Virus record (IMG/VR): IMGVR_UViG_3300029267_003206
Span: 1 to 55,096 of that record
Strand: one strand, 5' to 3'
Length of the DNA stretch: 55,096 bases
Source of the DNA: a virus
Lineage: Duplodnaviria > Caudoviricetes
The position numbers and the translations under genes are program-made. Positions 17,669 to 49,631 of this stretch are shown piece after piece (the first letter of the stretch is position 1; the number at the start of each line of letters is the position of its first letter). The notes beneath the pieces are model-generated. The model saw nothing but the letters and a program-made list of their open reading frames with translations, was not told the DNA's origin and did not search any database.

Positions 17669-19171
17669 CTATGGTAAGGATTTAGCAATCTTTGCTTCTG
17701 TTATGTTTTTAATCTGGAATCCAAACGCATCTACCATCCGTTCCATTTCTACCTTTAACTCTTCTGTTAAATTGGATGTATTAAATGCTTCATATTCCAG
17801 AGTAAAGTCTGCCAAAATGTTTGAGTTATATGCCAATTGTAGCTTATGCTTCCACCACAAAAGATCATTTTGGTCATATTGCATATCAAAGGAAACCTGG
17901 TTAGATTCTCTATCCAACGTGATGCTTCCATTATAATCACTTCCATTCGCAACTCCCTGGGTGGGACCAGTCTTCCCAGAGCCTATATGTCCAAAGATTT
18001 CACCCTGATTATTTAAGGTTATGTCCAACTTCCTTATTTTTACTCTCTTGGCAGATGTAGAGGGATCTTGTTCAATGACATCCCCTTCTGTCCAATTTCT
18101 CGCAGCAGGTAATGCAGGAGAAACAAGGAAGGTTTTAGCTGTAACATCTACAGTTGTGATAGTTGTTGGGAATTGATAGCCATCTATTTTGGATGTTATG
18201 ATAATATCATCACCATCTTCATATCCTGTGACAGATCCAACTGTTAACAGAGTATCAGTTGGGCCTGCTGGTAAACCTAACACTGTTCCATGCGTAAAGA
18301 CAGAAGTGCAATGTCCATGACTTCTAAGAAGATATCTTTTATATGGTAGATCTGGGGGTATAGTCTTATCTGGAAGAGTCCTTAACATATACCCATATAG
18401 GACCTCATGATTCTCGGATAAATGACTTGACATGTCATCATCAAAAGAGATAGATGTTTGGGTAGCTATGCATCCAGTCAGAAGGCGAATTTGATTTGGA
18501 CTCTGTCTCATTCTATAACAGAGAGAAAATGATTTGATGGTGGAGGAATTTGGTCTTTCACGGATGTTTAAATCGCCAGACATATCATTCGGTATCTTTC
18601 CATCATATGTCATAACAAATGCTTTTAAAGATGAGTATGCATAAACATTGTCACCATACTTGAAGAAATCTGATCCCGCCTGTGTATCAAAGGTTATCTT
18701 CCCCATACGTGCAGCTTCAATGGGGTGTTCTTTATACAGCCCATCCCCAACTCCACCTTCGGCAGTTCTCCCCATTTCCAGCTCATTTGGTGCTCTGACA
18801 ATCCTACCTTGTATAGTAGAAGGAATGAGATTGATGTCATCCCCAATTGTTATGGCTGTAGCCAGAGGGGGTTCAATCTTAATCTCATCAGGATTAGGCA
18901 TATCAATTATGATATGCTTAGATGTAACTCCACCAACTTGCCTTACAATTTGTATTCTCAAGAATTTGAAATAATCTTCATCCACCGTGTAATCATCATC
19001 CCCTACAGGATGTGTTGTGTTGTAGGTAGGTAAATCTGGAGTTATCTCAATAACATCCACACCTATCCCAGCTGCAGCAGCTACTTCAAATCCAGTTAGT
19101 GGAACTCCATATGCTTTTTCAGGAAGCATTCCTATTGGCTCAATTTCAGCTTGTATATCAAAACTACTCAT
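17669..19171 (-). CDS. Major tail tube protein with inserted beta domains
   Basis: Position; LLTGCIATQTSISF and IRKLDITLNN...YNGSITL tube-like strands; two similar beta inserts ending PPLATAITIGDDI and PALPAARNWTEGDVI. Confidence 0.7.
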   Translation of the reverse strand: MSSFDIQAEIEPIGMLPEKAYGVPLTGFEVAAAAGIGVDVIEITPDLPTYNTTHPVGDDDYTVDEDYFKFLRIQIVRQVGGVTSKHIIIDMPNPDEIKIEPPLATAITIGDDINLIPSTIQGRIVRAPNELEMGRTAEGGVGDGLYKEHPIEAARMGKITFDTQAGSDFFKYGDNVYAYSSLKAFVMTYDGKIPNDMSGDLNIRERPNSSTIKSFSLCYRMRQSPNQIRLLTGCIATQTSISFDDDMSSHLSENHEVLYGYMLRTLPDKTIPPDLPYKRYLLRSHGHCTSVFTHGTVLGLPAGPTDTLLTVGSVTGYEDGDDIIITSKIDGYQFPTTITTVDVTAKTFLVSPALPAARNWTEGDVIEQDPSTSAKRVKIRKLDITLNNQGEIFGHIGSGKTGPTQGVANGSDYNGSITLDRESNQVSFDMQYDQNDLLWWKHKLQLAYNSNILADFTLEYEAFNTSNLTEELKVEMERMVDAFGFQIKNITEAKIAKSLP

Positions 19172-31357: not shown

Positions 31358-32500
31358 TTAGATGGCTCCACTCTTAATGGCCTTCGCAAATTCATGGCAG
31401 TTGAATATCCCACATCCATAATTCTCATTGACGATGGCAGGGTTGGATTTTTCCCAGGTCTTGATGTTCAAATCACCGGATTTCTTCTCCAGCTCTTCTA
31501 CCTTCACGATGGGCTTCTTCTTCCAGGTATAGAAACCAAGTCTTCGACCTTTCTGGCAGACATAGGCAACACCTTGCCACATCCTTTCGGATACAAGGAA
31601 ATTGATTCCAGCTGTCTTCCCGATCTCTCCATTCAACAGAACAGAGTTATCTCCATATCTGCTTGCGTCTGTGAACCTTTCATCTTTTTCAAGATCATTC
31701 ATCTGGTTCTCATGAGTAACACAAGTGTCTGCTTTCCCATAGGATGTTGAACGCACCTTTGTCTTGGCGTTGACTATATCATCCCTCTGCAAGGATCGCA
31801 CCTGAGTGGCTTCAAGGGCATTGGTTCTGGTGGAATAGACATAATCAATCGCACAGACATATGCATTGGCAACAGGTGTGAAGAACTCTATGACTCCCCT
31901 AAAGAAGTCAAGGTAGTAATCTGTTCCAAGAACAGCTGCTACAGCTCCCGCTCCAAAGTCTGCCGTGAGGCTGGTGACTTCTAAGATTTTGTCATGTGCC
32001 AGATTGAACCGTTTTGCAGCCCCAGTTCCAGCTGTCAGGTTCTCAGCAGCAATAACTGTGGCATCGAAAACTTCGTTCCAGGTGCGGGCATCTGCTTTTC
32101 TTGCCATACCAGCAGCAAGAGCAGTTTCTGTTTCCCTGATAGCATCTATATCCATATCATCAATGGCATCTTCGTAAACTGTTTCAGAGTGACCAAATTT
32201 GGTTGGAGTGGAATCCACTGTGCTAAACACTTCTGGAGTCCCTACAGGCGGGACATCATCACCTGCATTAAAATCTATAGCATCAGACACTGCAGCAGAT
32301 TTCCTATATGTTCTTATTCTGCCTGGGTGTCCAACAAGGGCTGAATCTTCGTGAAGTATCTGCTTCCCTACGAGCATCGGCTCAAGGTCTGCCATGATAT
32401 CCTTCGTGATGAGCTTCTGAATACCAGAATTATCTACATCTGTCTCATCAAATGTGAAGTCTTCGAACCCTATATTTCCATTTTTCTTCCTGACTTTCAT
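31358..32500 (-). CDS. Major capsid protein (HK97 fold) with inserted Ig-like domain
   Basis: Follows protease and scaffold; TPTKFG...LAAGMARKAD; LLNGEIGKTAGINFLVS; insert GTDYYLDFFRGVIEF. Confidence 0.88.
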   Translation of the reverse strand: MKVRKKNGNIGFEDFTFDETDVDNSGIQKLITKDIMADLEPMLVGKQILHEDSALVGHPGRIRTYRKSAAVSDAIDFNAGDDVPPVGTPEVFSTVDSTPTKFGHSETVYEDAIDDMDIDAIRETETALAAGMARKADARTWNEVFDATVIAAENLTAGTGAAKRFNLAHDKILEVTSLTADFGAGAVAAVLGTDYYLDFFRGVIEFFTPVANAYVCAIDYVYSTRTNALEATQVRSLQRDDIVNAKTKVRSTSYGKADTCVTHENQMNDLEKDERFTDASRYGDNSVLLNGEIGKTAGINFLVSERMWQGVAYVCQKGRRLGFYTWKKKPIVKVEELEKKSGDLNIKTWEKSNPAIVNENYGCGIFNCHEFAKAIKSGAI

Positions 32501-33202: not shown

Positions 33203-33216
33203 TATATAAAGGTATG
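33203..33216 (-). promoter_or_regulatory. Archaeal TATA box for scaffold-MCP transcript
   Basis: Minus strand cataccTTTATATA about 40 nt upstream of the start. Confidence 0.6.
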
Positions 33217-38631: not shown

Positions 38632-40248
38632 TTACCATCTCTTTTTAGCTTTTAATCCATAAGCGCTATTATCATCATCATCTACTATCTCTCTATTCCC
38701 AACTGTTTTCTTACGAGAACCACCTGACTTCTTTAGGCTATGTGAATTGTTCTTCTTATCTTCTCTTTCTTCCACTTCTCCAGGTTTACCCATATCTATA
38801 AAACCATCTGCAGCGTCAAGTGTCAAACGATGACTATCAGGGAAGTCTGACTTATGTTGCATCCCTCTTTTATTCTGATGATCCACCCGTATCTTGTTAC
38901 CTACTTTTCTTCTAACCAGGGCACACATCTGTTTCTCAAACAGATCAACTTCGTCTTTCTTGACATCTGGATATGAATACTGTTTGTTCTGAGTCTTAAG
39001 TTTCATATCAGCAAATGATTGATCACGCAGAGTATCAAGTGTGTTAACCCTAACCAGATTCTCAATACCTGGAATCACAGTTCCATCTGCCAACTCAGTG
39101 TCAACTTCCAGGAAATCATTTAACACTCCACCTGGGGGATTATTTTCTGCCCGAAATTCAACGAAATTAAATCTGGAAGCTGCTAACCGAATATCAATGC
39201 TTTGAACAACATAATCATCCCCCCGCCAGTATTCCCAATAGATAATCTGCCTATCTCGTAGACGCATAACTTCCATAACAGTGCAGTCATTTGATTTGGC
39301 AACATCTAAACCACCTACACAGGGTTCCTCGCAAGAATCTAACCAGGGACCAGATTTACATTTTCTTAATGTCTTCTTATCCATAAAGTCTTGTCCCTCT
39401 GTCACATCCCAAACATGGAAAAACTGTGATTGCATAGCAGGGTGGTCAATTCCATATCTCTTGAAGCGACCAAGAACAAAACGCCTATAATCTTGCGTTC
39501 CTGGTTCAGAGAAACATCTCTCTAAGTCAATGATATGGAAGTCAGGATTTGGAGGAAGACCATTTTCCCTTCTTTCCATCTCATCTGTAACTTCATAATA
39601 TACCCTCCCATGTTCCTTTTCCTCATGTGAAGCTGTGAAAATATATACCATCGTCCCATTTCTTGCTGCTAACTGAGGATCGATGCTCTTTATTATCTTC
39701 CCCTCTGTTATAGATTGAGCTTCCTCAAGAACAGCCAGATCTAAGTCAGGACCTTCTATACATTTAGAAGTTGGAGATGCTGTATGTGTCAAGATATTAG
39801 AACCAGTAGAAAGCTTAATCCATTTGGAGTTATTAATGTCTGCATGAACTCCCAGGATTCCCGTATAGTAGAATGACTCTAATCTCTCTTTTACTTTGTC
39901 TGTGAAAAGTTTAGCAGGGTCATCAGATGGAGCATAGATGCCTACATTGAAGCCATTACGCATATGGGGGTAAAGTTCAGAAAAGAAGATTGGTATGATA
40001 ACACCTAATTGGGTAACTGTTTCTGCCAGCCCCTGGGACTTCCCAGACTGGCGGGGCATCATAATATAAATTACCTTCCCCTGTCTAAGTAAGACGCTTC
40101 TTATAACCTCCCACATCACTTCTACCTGGTAGCTACGTGGGATGAGTCCTGATACAGCCAGAGCCACACGCTTGAAAAGAGAAGGTGTAAATTCCTTCAT
40201 TTTGTAATGAGCAGCAAGTTCTCTGGCAACAACCATATCTGTCTTCAA
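38632..40248 (-). CDS. terL: Terminase large subunit
   Basis: Walker A PRQSGKS; Walker B AVLEEAQ; coupling motif FTA; nuclease GGLDVAKSND...SDFPDS. Confidence 0.93.
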   Translation of the reverse strand: MKTDMVVARELAAHYKMKEFTPSLFKRVALAVSGLIPRSYQVEVMWEVIRSVLLRQGKVIYIMMPRQSGKSQGLAETVTQLGVIIPIFFSELYPHMRNGFNVGIYAPSDDPAKLFTDKVKERLESFYYTGILGVHADINNSKWIKLSTGSNILTHTASPTSKCIEGPDLDLAVLEEAQSITEGKIIKSIDPQLAARNGTMVYIFTASHEEKEHGRVYYEVTDEMERRENGLPPNPDFHIIDLERCFSEPGTQDYRRFVLGRFKRYGIDHPAMQSQFFHVWDVTEGQDFMDKKTLRKCKSGPWLDSCEEPCVGGLDVAKSNDCTVMEVMRLRDRQIIYWEYWRGDDYVVQSIDIRLAASRFNFVEFRAENNPPGGVLNDFLEVDTELADGTVIPGIENLVRVNTLDTLRDQSFADMKLKTQNKQYSYPDVKKDEVDLFEKQMCALVRRKVGNKIRVDHQNKRGMQHKSDFPDSHRLTLDAADGFIDMGKPGEVEEREDKKNNSHSLKKSGGSRKKTVGNREIVDDDDNSAYGLKAKKRW

Positions 40249-41330: not shown

Positions 41331-41847
41331 TCTTTGAAGAATAGTATATGGTGTAGCAGAGGGCGGATCAGGGGGCTATTTTGGGGCACAAAGGTATATA
41401 GTTAGTTATATGTCTGTTTCCTTTTGACCTTCTTAGATACCTCAGCCCCCCTATGTAGTATATATAGTTTTCCCTATATTCCTTCAAATTGGGTCCGATT
41501 TGATTTTTCTCTGGCAGATTGTAGTATTCTTAGAGAGGAATATAAGGTGTTTCAGCATATTCACGTAGATTAACGCCGTTAATATAGATAAGTATATATA
41601 GAAGGAGAGAGATGAAGAGGGGCCTTACGCATCTGAAACAAGGAAAAGGAAACAGATGGTTATACGGTTATATACCTTTGTGCCCTATCTAAACTTTTCC
41701 GATCCATCTGCTCCGAAATTTTTTCCCATTTCTGCTTATTTACGTATCTGTTCTGATAGAAAGTAAACCCAGAATCCTTTGATTTTGCGAGTGTATACAG
41801 GTTGATATATAATAAAGGTGTATGCGTAACATTATCTATTCGTTTAC

Positions 41848-42000: not shown

Positions 42001-42045
42001 AAATTTGTCATACTCATTACAAAAATATGGTCAATTCCACTTGAC

Positions 42046-42062
42046 CACAACATTTATATACT
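42046..42062 (+). promoter_or_regulatory. Archaeal TATA promoter P1
   Basis: TTTATATA at 42053-42060, about 22 nt before the GC-rich structured region. Confidence 0.7.
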
Positions 42063-42081
42063 TAAAACCCCTACTCATATT

Positions 42082-42465
42082 GCCGGTGGCCCATCCGGGC
42101 GGGCGGGCTTCGAGCCTTCCCCCGGAACCCACCTAAGGCCAGACGAAAGTCTCAGCAGAGAAGTCCAAGGCGGACTAAAGCCAAAACCTGAACGGCATAC
42201 CGAAGGTGTGAGAGTTCGAAGGTGCTAAGTGCTAACAAGGCATCTTTTAACCGTAGCATCCAATCGTTCCAGTATGCCAGATGGAGGGAAGCAACCCCAT
42301 TGTAGCGGATGGGTTTACCTTACGCAAGATGTCAGAGGTGGCATAATAAGAATACCTAAGCTCAGCGACAGCAGATATATTGCTCTGTCTGCCAAAGTTG
42401 TTCCTTTCGGGGGAAGTGCTCTGTAATTGAGCATACAATTGAATGGGCATTTCCCCCATTTTTTT
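42082..42465 (+). ncRNA. Large structured non-coding RNA of unknown class (about 380 nt)
   Basis: Own TATA box and 3' U7 tract; GC-rich hairpins with GAAA and UUCG loops; nested long-range helices. Confidence 0.65.
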
Positions 42466-42550
42466 CTATTCAACATTAACAGGCAGATTCAGGCCGGTGC
42501 ATTACACTTGTAAGTCCTGATTCTGTCTGGTGTATGAAAGGAGGAATGAT

Positions 42551-43156: not shown

Positions 43157-43192
43157 GCAGATACGGAATAAGCAGAGACAATTGAGGTTGAT

Positions 43193-43208
43193 CGAAACCT
43201 TTATATAC
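43193..43208 (+). promoter_or_regulatory. Archaeal BRE+TATA promoter P2
   Basis: cgaaaccTTTATATAc. Confidence 0.7.
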
Positions 43209-43272
43209 TTATACCTCAATGTCTGTTATGGTCACACACCGTAAAACGTGACATATTAAGGAGGACAAACAG

Positions 43273-43806
43273 ATGCCAACACTTGCAGACAAAATATCGG
43301 CCATTAAGAAGGCTAGAGCAGAGTCAGCCACCACGCCTGGGAAGAGTGGGAAATTACCAAAGAAGCGAAAGGGGAAGAGGTTAATTCCTCTTTTCAAGGA
43401 GTATTCAGACTACGTTCCCTCTGAAGCACCGTCATTAAGAGGGAGTTGCGAAGACTTCTTGAGAACCTTCAGCCCTGAGATGTCGATGACCCAACAGATG
43501 GTCTTCGATGGGAAGGCTAAGCATTTCGAAGGTTCAACTTCACTCATCGTGAAGACCCTAACAGACCTTTATGAATCAGGTCTACTTTTCCCCAACTGGC
43601 CCAAGAAGGCCACGATCCCCCCTATAGCATATTATATGCTAACAGCATCCCTGAAGTGGGATGAGAAGGTTGAGAAAGAGATTCTTCCAGACCTTCTTGA
43701 ACTGGGTATCTCATTTGAGAAGATAGAAAGACCTGTCTTCGAGAAGCCCCCAGTTGCAGGGGAAGCAGAGGAAGCAGAACCAGATGAAGATGAAGATGAA
43801 GAGTAA
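43273..43806 (+). CDS. Early protein A (basic N-terminal helix, acidic tail)
   Basis: TAAGGAGG RBS; first gene after P2; N-terminus resembles 48324..48623. Confidence 0.8.
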   Translation: MPTLADKISAIKKARAESATTPGKSGKLPKKRKGKRLIPLFKEYSDYVPSEAPSLRGSCEDFLRTFSPEMSMTQQMVFDGKAKHFEGSTSLIVKTLTDLYESGLLFPNWPKKATIPPIAYYMLTASLKWDEKVEKEILPDLLELGISFEKIERPVFEKPPVAGEAEEAEPDEDEDEE

Positions 43807-43834
43807 TCTCCATCCGGTTTGGCTCTACTCGAAG

Positions 43835-43931
43835 GTTGTTTAAGCATCCAGAACCGAATCGGTATGGGCTTGTTGAACCACTGGATTTTAAACAACGGGG
43901 CATATCAGTTTAGAGATAAACGGTATGCCCC
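43835..43931 (+). ncRNA. Structured RNA element (three-way junction plus GNRA hairpin)
   Basis: gttgtttaa/ttaaacaac, atccag/ctggat, accg/cggt, ggggcata/tatgcccc, gttta-GAGA-taaac. Confidence 0.5.
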
Positions 43932-44102
43932 CATATGCTTCAATACATCCACATATTACGTTCATTTATCATATAGGTTGGTAATTAGTATTTTTAGGTG
44001 GAAAGGTATACAACTATCTATCCATCTGTTTCCTTTTTTAAGGAATAAAAACAACGGAGGACATATATATGACAGCTAAGGTGATGGGTAAGGAGGGTTG
44101 GC

Positions 44103-44867
44103 TTGTCTGATAGCCAATCCACCTATGCAAAGGCTTTGATAAGAAAAGCAATTGAAAGAAGAGAAGCAAAGAAAGAAGCTAAACGGAGAAAACATAAAGG
44201 GAAGATATCAGAGCCGGAACACTATGTAAAACCAACAGACAAGATAAGATGCCGTAATCCATTATGCCAATTCAAAGAGCATTTTGGATATCCAGCAGAT
44301 TGGCCTGGCATCTTCACGGCCTTCTGTCCATTTTGTGGACAGTTAGGGAGAATCATAGTAGAAGGGGAACCAATTAGAGTTAATTGGGAAGACCCCAAGA
44401 CTCAAGAGCAGATATGGGCATATACAAATAACGGCTTCGTAAGGAGTCCCGATGCTCCAATTGACCCATATAAATATGTAGACAGATTCAGAGAATGGAG
44501 CAGGAAAAGGTCAGAGGAACTTCAACCAGATTATATCTGGTATGCCTATACCGATTCAGAAAAGGCAATTGAGAAAACAGTTGCCAGTATAGATATGGTA
44601 AAGATGGCAGAAGCTGGATTTCCAGAACCGATGAACTGTAATCCACTCATCTGTTCATTCAAGGGGCGTTCCTGCTTTGTAGGATATTCTGAAGGTGGAG
44701 CGAAAGAGGGAAGATGTCGATTAGGGATGATGCTTTGTGGTGTTACCCCAACATCCCAAAGGATGAGGATGAGAAGTGGGGAAGTGCAGAGAGTCAGGAG
44801 AGAAAAGGTTAAGGCCAGATTACGATTAAAGCAGAAGTTGAAAGGAATTGGAGGGGGGATTATATGA
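44103..44867 (+). CDS. Zn-finger hypothetical protein
   Basis: CRNPLC...CPFC plus a second Cys cluster; GGAGG RBS with TTG start. Confidence 0.7.
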   Translation: MSDSQSTYAKALIRKAIERREAKKEAKRRKHKGKISEPEHYVKPTDKIRCRNPLCQFKEHFGYPADWPGIFTAFCPFCGQLGRIIVEGEPIRVNWEDPKTQEQIWAYTNNGFVRSPDAPIDPYKYVDRFREWSRKRSEELQPDYIWYAYTDSEKAIEKTVASIDMVKMAEAGFPEPMNCNPLICSFKGRSCFVGYSEGGAKEGRCRLGMMLCGVTPTSQRMRMRSGEVQRVRREKVKARLRLKQKLKGIGGGII

Positions 44868-45306
44868 AGGAGTGGACGGGATGATAAAAATTCTAACTGC
44901 TATAGCATCCAAAGAATCTTTATCATGTTTAGATGATGAACCCGTAGTATTTGGGCCGGATTGTGGATGTTCAGAATGTGAGTGTGGATGTAGAAATAGG
45001 ATGGTGGGCCTGAAAACATACCACAATTCCACACTATTCAAAGTCCAAGAAGTTGATATCACTTGCTCATACTATGAGAAGCAGATATTTGATTACCTCT
45101 GCTACATAGGAATGAATGAAATAACAACACTAACAGAGATATCATCCTTAGCTCATAAGATGGCAGATGATATATTCTACATCACGAACCAAATGCAAAT
45201 TGGAGACATTGTAGAGAGAGAAGATGAAGTCTTCACAGTCATACGGAATACTAAAGCAGATATTAGAGAGCGATTAAAGTTAAAGCTCTCTGGGGGGAAA
45301 GGATAA
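44848..45306 (+). CDS. Cys-containing hypothetical protein (start probably 44881)
   Basis: CGCSECECGC; operon position. Confidence 0.6.
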   Translation: MEGGLYEGVDGMIKILTAIASKESLSCLDDEPVVFGPDCGCSECECGCRNRMVGLKTYHNSTLFKVQEVDITCSYYEKQIFDYLCYIGMNEITTLTEISSLAHKMADDIFYITNQMQIGDIVEREDEVFTVIRNTKADIRERLKLKLSGGKG

Positions 45307-45324
45307 TGTTAATGATGCTAACCA

Positions 45325-45600
45325 TACTATATCCCATTGAGATGTTTATTTCTATGGGATGTAGTGATCCAAACAACTGTGTAGATGTGAATGAGAAATC
45401 TGTTCAACAAGCAGATGACCCAGGCATATCGTATGGGATTCCGTCTTCCAGACCACCGTAGGATTCCCCCTCTGCCAAATTGGTTAAGTCTAACCGTTAA
45501 AAGGTGGAGGGGGAATACTGAGGGAATCAAGCATACACAGTTGAGAATCAAGGGGGGCATCGCAAATGTCTATAAGAGATTATAGACACCAAAGCCCCCC
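45325..45600 (+). ncRNA. Multibranch structured ncRNA upstream of the tRNA-like gene
   Basis: 13-bp hairpin 45325-45366; 10-bp closing stem caactgtgta/tacacagttg (45374-45543) enclosing a 14-bp stem; ggggggc/gcccccc hairpin with tgtctataa-GAGA-ttatagaca. Confidence 0.65.
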
Positions 45601-45618
45601 ACCATCTTCTTTCACAAT

Positions 45619-45688
45619 AGCCGGATGGTATAATGGCAACGCATCCCCATTGGTGGGGAAGCTGATGGTTCAAATCCATCTCTGGCTA
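45619..45688 (+). tRNA. tRNA-like gene (Gln-like, aberrant anticodon loop; no CCA encoded)
   Basis: Acceptor AGCCGGA/TCTGGCT plus A; D-loop AATGG; T-arm GATGG-TTCAAAT-CCATC; anticodon arm TCCCC-ATTGGT-GGGGA has a 6-nt loop. Confidence 0.7.
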
Positions 45689-45993
45689 CTATAAATAAAA
45701 TGGAGGCAAAACAATATGACGGCAAATGAAGAACAGGCAGAAAGAGAACATAGAGAACGGATGATTAGTGCACTTGGAAGCCTGATCCTCCAGTTGGAGG
45801 TAATACGAATGAATCTGCAGAAAAAGATAGATGCTTCTACAGATGCCCATACCAAAGAGGTAGATATAAATGAAAGCTAAAAAATCTAACTCCGGTAAAT
45901 CTGTTTACATCAATCAGATACACGGCTCACCATCTCCAGAATACATACTGCAAGAGAATATAGATGGTGTTATAGTCAGAGTGAAAGGGCGGT

Positions 45994-47131: not shown

Positions 47132-47654
47132 ACAGGAAGCAGATAAAACTATGGAGAAGACAAAACTTGAACTGGCTGAGGTCTTGAGTCAGTTTGGTGA
47201 TGTCGAAGATATACGTGCAATGATAATGACATACTTGCTTTCCAAGCAGACTCCAATGGTAATCTTAGAAGACCATGTTATATTATACTTACGAACACTG
47301 ATGGAATTAACAGCAGATAATCCAGTTATCCTATATAATATGCTAAGTAGGATGGCTGGACTAACTGCTATTGGGATTTATTCCATCCGGTATAATACTA
47401 AATATGGAGAGCATCCATCCAATGCACTCATCTGTGAACTTGCAGAGATGGGGGCTGAAAAGGTTTATATGAAGTTCAAAGAAGAATTTCAACGAGACTT
47501 ATATGACATAACAGACCTCATAAAAGAGAATGAAAAGAAGGCGACTGCGATGTATACAATCGCAACAGAGGAAGAGCTAGAAAAAGGGTTTAGAGATGCT
47601 CTTAAATACAAAGCAGACAAAGAACGTAAAGATGAAAATCCTTATATAAGATAA
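47124..47654 (+). CDS. Helical hypothetical protein
   Basis: GGGGTGA RBS; 176 aa. Confidence 0.7.
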   Translation: MDEQEADKTMEKTKLELAEVLSQFGDVEDIRAMIMTYLLSKQTPMVILEDHVILYLRTLMELTADNPVILYNMLSRMAGLTAIGIYSIRYNTKYGEHPSNALICELAEMGAEKVYMKFKEEFQRDLYDITDLIKENEKKATAMYTIATEEELEKGFRDALKYKADKERKDENPYIR

Positions 47655-48323: not shown

Positions 48324-48623
48324 ATGCCAGGATTGATGGAACAGATAAAAAATATCAAAAAAGAACGAGCTGAGCAGGGCGAACCCGCCTCTGCCAAAGA
48401 TCAGAAGAAATTCGGAGAGGTTAGAGTAACCTTCTACCGAGAAGGGGCATATAGAACAGATGCCGATGGAAACAAGGTTCCGATGGGTGGAGATTCCAAT
48501 GGGAACTATGACAGGATTTGTAGAGGTCTGGGTATTGATGGAGAAGACTCCGGGATGCTTGCAGATATTCTCGACACCCTGGTTGAAGACTTAGTATCAG
48601 GAAAGTTGAAGTATACTTCCTAA
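48324..48623 (+). CDS. Early protein B (N-terminus similar to protein A)
   Basis: First gene after P3; MPGLMEQIKNIKKERAE. Confidence 0.75.
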   Translation: MPGLMEQIKNIKKERAEQGEPASAKDQKKFGEVRVTFYREGAYRTDADGNKVPMGGDSNGNYDRICRGLGIDGEDSGMLADILDTLVEDLVSGKLKYTS

Positions 48624-48636
48624 GAAGTATGCTGAT

Positions 48637-48843
48637 GGGGTTGGTAATCCACCGACCCCTATTTCATTTTGGGCCTTCCCGATGTGATAAACGATAAGAT
48701 GATTCATTTTACCACCCACATTGGGATGATGACTGAGTATGATTTTCATACACAACATCCCTGGTGTCAAAACCAGATGGCCCACATCCCCCTTATACAT
48801 TCTCTCCCCTAATAGCAACGGGCAGGTGTGATTGCACCTGCCC
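48637..48843 (+). ncRNA. Structured intergenic element (hairpin, four-way junction, hairpin)
   Basis: ggggttggt/accgacccc; tgggcc/ggccca enclosing tcccgatgtg/cacattggga, gtatga/tcatac and ctggt/accag; gggcaggtg/cacctgccc. Confidence 0.5.
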
Positions 48844-48884
48844 ACACTTCACTCAGAACCTTCTTATAAAATGGAGGCATATAT

Positions 48885-49631
48885 ATGGAAACCCTGACGG
48901 TAACTGGCGAAGCCTATCACGCTAAGAAGCGTGAATTTAAAAAACTTCTATCAGAGTTGGGTATCTCATGGTGTGGGACAATAGATGCTGTAGAGTGGAG
49001 ATCATCTGGGGTTAGGGTTAAAGGAGAATTTTTCAGAGATAAAGTTAATAATTTGACCATCAAGGCTACTTTGCATATTGAAGGCGATGATATGCAAAGT
49101 ATCCAGCGACTTGTTAAATGGATACGTTCTAATATGAACGCAGTTGGAGACATACAGAAAGAAATTAAGAACCGTCTGTATGACTTCCAGATGTTTGAGA
49201 ATTTTTACAAACCATCTATAGAGAAGATGAAAAAAGAAAATGCACCAGGTTATATCATAGCAAGAAAAGAAAAAGATTGGGTGTGGCAGAGGAAAAAAAA
49301 GATGCTTGAATTGGGTATAACAGAAGGTATGTTGAAGGGCATCGTTCCTGATAAACTTCCACACCCAATAGATGTTTCTGACATAGAAGAAGAAAAAGAA
49401 ACAGGATTCACATGGACAAAAGAAGATCAGGATTGGTATGATAAATGTGAAGCAAGGAAAGCAGAGCGTAAACAGAAGAAGAGAAAATTAAAATATAATA
49501 CATTGAACGCCGATGCCATAACTGATGACATCCTTAGGAAGACAGGTCATCAAAGTAAGAAAGCTAAAAGAGCAGATGCAAAGCAGAATCTTTTAGCAAA
49601 ATTAAAGAAAATAAAGAAAGGGGTGGAATAG
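48885..49631 (+). CDS. Hypothetical protein with basic C-terminal tail
   Basis: GGAGG RBS; 248 aa. Confidence 0.75.
   Translation: METLTVTGEAYHAKKREFKKLLSELGISWCGTIDAVEWRSSGVRVKGEFFRDKVNNLTIKATLHIEGDDMQSIQRLVKWIRSNMNAVGDIQKEIKNRLYDFQMFENFYKPSIEKMKKENAPGYIIARKEKDWVWQRKKKMLELGITEGMLKGIVPDKLPHPIDVSDIEEEKETGFTWTKEDQDWYDKCEARKAERKQKKRKLKYNTLNADAITDDILRKTGHQSKKAKRADAKQNLLAKLKKIKKGVE

Follow-up and report, generated by a model that had tools for sequence, protein, structure and literature searches.

A stretch of the virus record IMGVR_UViG_3300029267_003206 (Duplodnaviria; Caudoviricetes), positions 45325-45600 on the plus strand, is a real and exceptional RNA-type structure on the transcribed strand. 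It lies directly upstream of a tRNA-like element and is probably a new non-coding RNA (ncRNA). The window analysed here is the whole record, 55,096 bp with direct terminal repeats and a completeness rating of 100%. Our tentative interpretation is that the stretch is a discrete virus-encoded ncRNA of about 280 nt that is cut from an early operon transcript, with its 3' end set by RNase P. The size of its core, the closure of that core and its standing as the most extreme fold of the genome lead us to prefer this interpretation, if narrowly, to the alternatives considered below.

Fold strength and strand

Positions 45325-45618 (294 nt, plus strand) fold to -116.6 kcal/mol, compared with -73.1 +/- 5.4 kcal/mol for dinucleotide shuffles (z -8.0), and none of the 200 shuffles folded as well. 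Each of the sub-domains is also significant when taken separately (Table 1), as is the long arm of the core (z -5.8). Because shuffle controls flatter a real sequence, a second ranking was made against the genome's own windows, in which the energies of 1119 transcribed-strand windows, each of 294 nt, were regressed on base composition. Window 45326-45619 ranked first of the 1119 with a residual z of -5.8, followed by its overlapping neighbours, and the next unrelated window reached -3.9. A scan with 200-nt windows gave the same picture. As a control, the equivalent gap in the related contig L004, which holds two open reading frames (ORFs) and is coding, had a z of -1.55 with 5 of 100 shuffles as good; the L004 region downstream of its tRNA was not significantly folded either (z -0.9).

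The minus strand of the whole stretch folds to -101.9 kcal/mol (z -4.6), 14.7 kcal/mol worse than the plus strand. Most affected are the core, which loses 14 kcal/mol (-54.8 kcal/mol, z -3.6), and the 5' hairpin, which loses 8 kcal/mol (-12.8 kcal/mol, z -5.0); the 3' hairpin is equally good on this strand (-27.6 kcal/mol). The plus-strand fold comprises 93 pairs, nine of them G-U, and three 1x1 mismatches. All nine G-U pairs would be C-A mismatches on the opposite strand, whereas only one of the three 1x1 mismatches is A-C. The neighbouring genes all lie on the plus strand, and together with the energy gap and the G-U asymmetry this speaks for a structure at the RNA level on the strand that is transcribed. 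The initial annotation of this region had taken many G-U pairs as a sign of RNA-level selection on the plus strand. Its choice of strand is supported, although G-U pairs make up only 9 of 93 and the claim of selection was drawn from one sequence.

Architecture of the folded stretch

The fold consists of a 5' hairpin, a multibranch core and a 3' hairpin. The preceding DUF7715 gene has its stop codon 19 nt ahead of the 5' hairpin, in which 45325-45337 pairs with 45354-45366 (13 bp, two of them G-U) and a 1x1 loop above this stem leads into a further one of 5 bp. The core, of about 170 nt, is closed by a perfect 10-bp stem, caactgtgta/tacacagttg (45374-45383/45534-45543), with a pair probability of 0.97, and has two branch points and two main arms, 45384-45430 and 45437-45528. 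A 6-bp extension (45384-45389/45425-45430) and a 7-bp helix (45398-45404/45410-45416), which corresponds to atctg/cagat, make up the first arm. The second starts from gattcc/ggaatc (45437-45442/45523-45528), for which the pair probability is only 0.52, and bears a small 4-bp hairpin (45443-45453) as well as the long arm, 45464-45476/45503-45515, whose cap (45481-45486/45491-45496) includes ggtta/taacc. In the 3' hairpin, a 7-bp G/C clamp (45552-45558/45594-45600, ggggggc/gcccccc) encloses an internal loop, beyond which a 9-bp stem (45567-45575/45580-45588) ends in a GAGA tetraloop.

Most of these helices had been proposed in the initial annotation and were recovered here, namely the closing stem, the flanking 13-bp hairpin (in the sequence and in the fold) and the G/C-clamped hairpin (in the local fold). 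The long arm, described there as a 14-bp stem at 45463-45516, has 13 bp when folded and 14 if the pair A45463-U45516 is counted. The inner arms fared less evenly: atctg/cagat and gattcc/ggaatc are present, while ccca/tggg is missing from both the minimum-energy and the centroid fold.

When 45200-45760 is folded whole (561 nt), the C6 run at 45595-45600 pairs with an upstream G6 run at 45292-45297 with a probability of 0.90. The G6 runs at 45292-45297 and 45552-45557 are thus rivals for the same C6 run, and as the upstream partner wins in the longer fold, the outer stem of the 3' hairpin is not the sole option. Either a switch or an artefact of folding at equilibrium could explain this competition. 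The upstream G6 run lies within the last DUF7715 codons, ahead of a 51-codon ORF.

A few other features of the region were considered and set aside. A long-range pairing of 45216-45226 with 45603-45613 is, on a rough estimate, likely due to chance given the purine-rich coding strand, and a copy of the repeat GTTAGCAT at 45315 is probably a chance occurrence. Readings of the hairpins as H/ACA, C/D-box or bulge-helix-bulge structures were rejected, since by eye no box or bulge geometry fits.

Table 1. Features of the folded stretch, its surroundings and the virus genome referred to in the text.
Feature	Position	Strand	Description
5' hairpin	45325-45366	+	-20.7 kcal/mol, z -6.5; pair probability 0.91-0.94
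Multibranch core	45374-45543	+	-68.9 kcal/mol, z -6.5
3' hairpin	45552-45600	+	-23.6 kcal/mol, z -5.8
Linker	45601-45618	+	18 nt, pyrimidine-rich, unpaired in the fold; would be the RNase P leader
51-codon ORF	45306-45461	+	Overlaps the folded stretch in its 5' third; ATG shares bases with the preceding stop codon
64-codon ORF	45391-45585	+	No Shine-Dalgarno-like motif in front
tRNA-like element	45619-45689	+	ARAGORN tRNA-??? with a 2-base anticodon; Rfam tRNA 41.1 bits, E 5e-7
Nearest upstream promoter-like motif	43188-43211	+	Twin at 42041-42064; 2 matches vs 0.01 expected
RNA1	~42065-42470	+	Non-coding, ~400 nt; promoter-like motif 42041-42064 before it; fold z -2.9
Folded intergenic stretch	43790-44110	+	z -3.5
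Third folded intergenic stretch	48610-48890 (48624-48884)	+	z -6.7
Large terminase	38632-40248	-	In the minus-strand head, packaging and tail block
Major capsid protein	31358-32500	-	In the minus-strand head, packaging and tail block

Known RNA families and sequence relatives

The expectation that this RNA would be unannotated was confirmed by covariance searches. With Rfam 15, no family covers the stretch at gathering score, and no family match was obtained with E up to 10 and lax filters (1201 and 321 bases) or with E up to 1 over the whole window. The only Rfam rows over the stretch are snoR143 (15.4 bits, gathering score 50) and Xist_exon1 (12.4 bits, gathering score 50). The self-cleaving ribozyme and group I intron models in Rfam do not match the stretch, the tRNA model (RF00005) has no match inside 45325-45600 at E up to 10, the neighbouring tRNA-like element being the one genuine hit of these searches, and the GOLLD and ROOL models match neither at gathering score nor at E up to 10. 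The initial annotation had pointed to large phage ncRNAs and tRNA-associated ribozymes as frequent neighbours of tRNAs; the stretch matches no Rfam model of either sort, and by these searches it belongs to no described family.

At the sequence level, blastn (word size 11) gave no match to the stretch among 50,697 phage records. An exact 25-mer of the long arm does not occur in viral_contigs or genome_contigs, nor does an exact 23-mer of the T arm of the tRNA-like element in viral_contigs. The collection metagenome_contigs was searched with a 254-amino-acid (aa) protein as anchor, rather than with the element, and only the L004 contig was returned. Kinship with the other folded stretches of the genome was rejected, as there is no significant similarity. 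The 9-mer TCTGCCAAA occurs at 17808, 42388, 45471 and 48390 on the plus strand (four copies, 0.87 expected; 3 of 100 shuffles reach four). One of the copies falls within the invariant block of RNA1, another within the element's long arm, and another 240 nt ahead of the third folded stretch. As a link between the element and RNA1, this marginal signal is too weak.

The identical virus is present in four public DNA sequencing runs and as fragments in a fifth, with no RNA run among them. The sequence of the stretch, like that of the tRNA-like element, is identical in three independently assembled contigs and no variant was seen, which places population-level covariation out of reach.

Coding potential

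The 51-codon and 64-codon ORFs overlap in different frames. In the protein index, the former finds solely the virus's own called gene, from four contigs. The latter matches no family in Pfam or PHROGs, and neither a back-translated search of viral contigs nor an index of 5.8 billion proteins yielded a homologue. A HMMER search over 1.84 billion representatives gave a single match, a 1116-aa protein, which we judged spurious: it is a 63-residue tandem repeat over which weak alignments are summed, the best single one having 25.8 bits and 28% identity. The initial annotation had named protein-level conservation of the 64-codon ORF, with synonymous changes that disrupt the stems, as an observation that would speak against an RNA, and no credible homologue was found in any collection searched.

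In the codon test the 51- and 64-codon ORFs score 0.045 and 0.012, respectively; for true frames the mean is 0.244 and the 5th percentile 0.098. Scores just as low, however, are obtained for two real small genes in the neighbourhood (0.041 and 0.053), and the codon test leans away from coding without settling the question. Purine content drops to 0.45 at 45400-45499, compared with 0.51-0.72 in the flanking coding windows. On the sequence evidence, a coding role for the stretch does not appear to be supported.

The downstream tRNA-like element

A gap of 18 nt separates the tRNA-like element from the last helix of the folded stretch. Its Rfam tRNA match spans 45619-45688; the run at gathering threshold missed it even though its 41.1 bits exceed the threshold of 29 bits, which is a filter effect. 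The element has a 7-bp acceptor stem, a D arm with GG in the D loop, a 5-bp anticodon stem and a standard T arm with a 5-bp T stem and standard T loop, and does not encode CCA. Its anticodon loop has 6 nt, one U fewer than in the tRNA-Gln(UUG) of L004, and the element seems unlikely to decode. In the acceptor stem, paired changes relative to the L004 tRNA-Gln occur at four of the seven pairs (counted by hand from the alignment), indicating that the cloverleaf was kept while the anticodon loop was shortened.

RNase P reads the acceptor/T-arm stack and the elbow of its substrates, and the anticodon arm is dispensable. As the acceptor/T-arm stack is intact, the element should still be cut at its 5' end, and release of the upstream RNA by RNase P at this site appears plausible. 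By eye, plus-strand stretches with TATAAA, then AATGGAGGCA, then ATG follow both the tRNA-like element (45690-45718) and the third folded stretch (48858-48887); they may represent a shared translation or promoter signal.

Genome context and relatives

Between about 11.6 and 41.3 kb the minus strand carries head, packaging and tail-type genes, while the plus strand from 42.5 kb, across the end of the record, to 11.5 kb carries many small, mostly orphan genes. No close cultured phage was found among the 50,697 phage records, the best terminase matches having 25-32% identity. The terminase identified only five related contigs in IMG/VR, and searches anchored on the DUF7715 protein gave the same five; an ESM Atlas query with a neighbouring protein returned nothing usable. 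Terminase identity is 66% for L002-L004 and 59% for L005 and L006, which belong to the records G001 and G002. Of these, G001 is a complete genome of 53.4 kb. L004 is syntenic around the element, with a 282-aa gene, DUF7715, ORFs of 60 and 94 codons, a standard tRNA-Gln(UUG) and a zinc-ribbon gene in order, and its slot shows no DNA similarity to the folded stretch by blastn. In G001, the matching interval consists of densely packed ORFs without a comparable intergenic fold, and the sole local fold lies inside an ORF.

The operon transcript that holds the element likely starts at the promoter-like motif at 43188-43211. Further upstream, RNA1, which is probably the first RNA of the initial annotation, follows a promoter-like motif that is conserved and ends in a terminator-like hairpin with a U run (42441-42469). 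Blocks at both of its ends are conserved in L004 (~5790-5290, minus strand) and L003 (1-460, minus strand), and RNA1 is not present in L005/G001. The folded stretch at 43790-44110 contains one copy (43989-44037) of a 36-49-nt repeat (D1, I1, I6), whose other copies, direct and inverted, lie at 41377-41425 and 41644-41679, in the divergent region at 41.3-41.7 kb. This repeat set may be operator- or origin-like.

Further tRNA-like modules were found in this virus group. On our own reading, the core of the third folded stretch (48670-48785) combines an acceptor-like stem of 7 bp, directly abutted by a T-like stem of 5 bp, with oversized other arms. In the same slot, G001 has an otherwise standard tRNA (L009 630-853; Rfam tRNA 40.6 bits) whose anticodon loop is interrupted by a folded insert of 158 nt. 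The standard ARAGORN mode misses this tRNA and the intron mode reports a 149-nt intron; two 7-nt anticodon loops can be read, Thr AGU according to ARAGORN and Lys UUU with the insert at 37/38 on our own reading. G001 also contains a 47-nt mini element (L005 5898-5944, minus strand, corresponding to G001 ~47459-47505) that comprises an acceptor stem and a perfect T arm without an anticodon arm, and whose best Rfam match is a sub-threshold hit to the mascRNA/menRNA model (19.5 bits, E 0.22). tRNA-like folds tied to structured RNA are therefore recurrent in this group. Such recurrence fits a system of transcript punctuation and a strategy of handle plus cargo equally well.

Proposed maturation of the RNA

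From the sequence and its predicted folds, we infer a course of transcription, cleavage, trimming, stabilisation and function for this RNA. The stretch would be transcribed on the plus strand within a long early operon transcript starting near 43211. RNase P would then recognise the acceptor/T-arm stack of the tRNA-like element and cut between 45618 and 45619, and 3' exonucleases would shorten the 18-nt pyrimidine-rich tail as far as the hairpin with the G/C clamp. On the 5' side, the 13-bp hairpin at 45325 would serve as a guard and also cap the 3' end of the DUF7715 message. The expected product is a stable, compact three-domain RNA in which the 170-nt core is locked by its 10-bp stem between protective hairpins, and the tRNA-like element would most simply be a processing handle for the RNA upstream of it. 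Our guess as to function is that, early in infection, the released RNA binds a factor of the host and either titrates or redirects it.

A bolder extension, which we consider doubtful, is that this virus group, whose hosts may be archaea, uses tRNA-like modules as general handles to excise and stabilise unrelated folded cargo RNAs by means of the cell's tRNA-processing enzymes. Versions of the strategy would then be the cargo placed 5' of the element with the 6-nt loop, the core at 48670-48785 and the insert of 149-158 nt in the anticodon loop of the G001 tRNA. The 47-nt acceptor/T-arm mini element of G001 may be a fourth case.

Evidence against a discrete RNA and alternative explanations

Several observations weigh against a discrete RNA. 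Within the collections searched, the element appears to be a singleton: blastn found it in 0 of the 5 related contigs and their whole records, which include the complete G001 and three partial ones, and a single-sequence covariance model of the core, run over 177,098 bases (the window and its relatives), returned only the element itself along with a 16.9-bit antisense overlap with it. There is thus one sequence, with no covariation or conservation, and as no homologue was found covariation cannot serve as proof here. In L004, the closest syntenic relative, the slot of the folded stretch is taken up by two small ORFs. The 51-codon ORF is called by gene callers, and its start codon overlaps the upstream stop as in coupled genes. 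No promoter-like or terminator-like site occurs on the plus strand between 45146 and 46266, leaving the element with neither of its own, and it is accordingly read as co-transcribed with its neighbours. Other strong intergenic folds in the same operon (43790-44110 and 48610-48890) fit a general cis-acting role, and the stretch is also non-random when folded as single-stranded DNA (z -6.5).

The alternative that we take most seriously, though we think it rather unlikely, is that the region is purely a cis-acting processing and stability cassette that punctuates the early transcript, with the folded middle as a by-product. The 5' hairpin would protect the 3' end of the DUF7715 mRNA, the tRNA-like element would recruit RNase P and RNase Z and so split the messages, and the long irregular stems may be cut by a double-strand-specific RNase. 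Such a role agrees with the position of the 5' hairpin shortly past the stop codon, with the missing promoter and terminator, and with the other two strong folds of the operon, of which the one at 48610-48890 has a core that we read as tRNA-like in the slot where G001 has a tRNA. Plant mitochondrial t-elements act in this way according to part of one account (PMC1920247). A 170-nt multibranch core with a perfect 10-bp lock, however, far exceeds the needs of punctuation; moreover, the stretch is the genome's most extreme fold, and the relatives handle the same gene junction without the element.

We regard it as improbable that the region instead encodes one or two tiny orphan proteins (45306-45461, perhaps 45391-45585), the RNA fold being incidental or serving to tune translation. 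The coupled start codon of the 51-codon ORF, the G-rich stretch upstream of it, its listing as a called gene in the protein collection, the two small ORFs at the same place in L004 and the low codon scores of some genuine small genes nearby would all be in keeping with this. Yet neither ORF has a credible homologue, both codon scores fall below the 5th percentile of true frames, the two overlap in different frames and the 64-codon ORF has no ribosome-binding motif. In addition, open frames of about 50-60 codons are, by an uncomputed estimate, not rare by chance in 312 nt, and a z of -8 is unexpected for coding sequence, the coding gap of L004 being far less folded. A functionless relic or selfish insertion, such as a decayed intron or former tRNA-gene cargo, seems no more probable. 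The element occurs in this virus only, in a slot that varies among relatives; the insert in the G001 tRNA ties such cargo to tRNA genes in the group, and the anticodon loop of the tRNA-like neighbour is damaged. Decay, on the other hand, should cost helices, yet the fold retains its 93 pairs and has no more than three 1x1 mismatches. Nor is there any similarity to the G001 insert or to other folded stretches, any match to a group I intron or ribozyme, or, on our own reading, any terminal-repeat or target-duplication signature at the 10-bp stem. Least probable is a DNA-level site, whether a replication origin, a recombination site or a cluster of protein-binding palindromes. The fold with DNA parameters and the 3' hairpin that is as good on the minus strand would suit such a site, but the G-U pairs turn into C-A on the other strand with the attendant loss of energy in the core and 5' hairpin, the stretch contains no iterons or direct repeats, and the direct terminal repeats at the genome ends are located elsewhere.

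Host of the virus

An archaeal host is moderately likely. The motif TTTATATA, preceded by CC or AC, is found at four intergenic sites facing downstream genes, at 42053 and 43200 on the plus strand and at 33203 and 30755 on the minus strand, and the promoter-like motif that bears it resembles an archaeal TATA box. Group I introns are larger than 149-158 nt; going by these general sizes, the insert in the G001 tRNA is too short to be one, which hints at an archaeal host, and no Rfam intron model matches the insert. In a 1329-aa protein, an archaeal rubrerythrin-like domain model passes its cut-off (39 vs 32 bits), and a lead from the ESM Atlas connects a 484-aa protein with a family that takes its name from a plasmid protein of Methanothermobacter (18% of one cluster's members). 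Strong Shine-Dalgarno motifs and terminators of the hairpin-plus-U type do not decide between a bacterial and an archaeal host. RNase P and tRNase Z act in both bacteria and archaea, so the question of the host leaves the proposed mechanism unchanged.

Comparison with known systems

Folded RNAs of unknown function beside viral tRNA genes, such as T4 RNAC and RNAD, GOLLD and ROOL, have long been a loose end, and the idea that proximity to tRNAs is functional, through shared processing, rather than accidental gains strength with every further unrelated case. The present case is a singleton from an uncultivated virus, which limits its value for now, but its tRNA-like neighbour seems not to decode and has nevertheless kept its cloverleaf, making the idea of a processing handle directly testable. 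If it held group-wide, these viruses would exploit the tRNA maturation machinery to make arbitrary stable RNAs, a natural counterpart of the laboratory 'tRNA scaffold'.

RNAC and RNAD of T4 lie in the tRNA cluster and are matured together with the tRNAs. A passage of one source describes them as phage RNAs whose function is yet unknown (PMC9697503). Like them, the element would be a virus-encoded non-coding RNA beside viral tRNA genes. It differs in having no sequence match in the 50,697 phage records (blastn), in being larger, with a closed multibranch core, and in that its neighbour is a single, probably non-decoding tRNA-like fold. GOLLD RNAs, according to passages in another source, are often found near tRNAs and in prophages, and ROOL RNAs have an average size of 581 nt (PMC5737381). 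The element shares with these a complex fold, and it sits 18 nt upstream of a tRNA-like fold in a complete virus genome. At about 276-294 nt with only two core branch points, however, it is smaller and simpler than ROOL with its many multistem junctions, and it matches neither Rfam model and has no family around it.

The genes of phage T7 are separated by processing hairpins of the RNase III type. The present operon is similar in that the genes of one long transcript are interspersed with several strong and irregular hairpins, each about 20 bp long. In contrast to such hairpins, the element is a closed three-domain unit and shares no sequence with the operon's other folds.

The closest parallels to the proposed processing come from cellular RNAs. 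In the case of MALAT1 and mascRNA, RNase P makes the 3' end of the RNA at a downstream tRNA-like fold. In plant mitochondria, as described in part of one source, the 3' ends of RNAs are generated by RNase P acting at tRNA-like t-elements that lie downstream (PMC1920247). These systems are organellar or nuclear, and the 3' protection of the element, unlike theirs, would be an ordinary G/C hairpin. As in both, a probably non-decoding cloverleaf stands directly 3' of the RNA, here with a 7-bp acceptor stem, a 5-bp T stem and an 18-nt spacer, and the sequence of events that we propose for the element, cleavage followed by trimming to a protective structure, would be the same.

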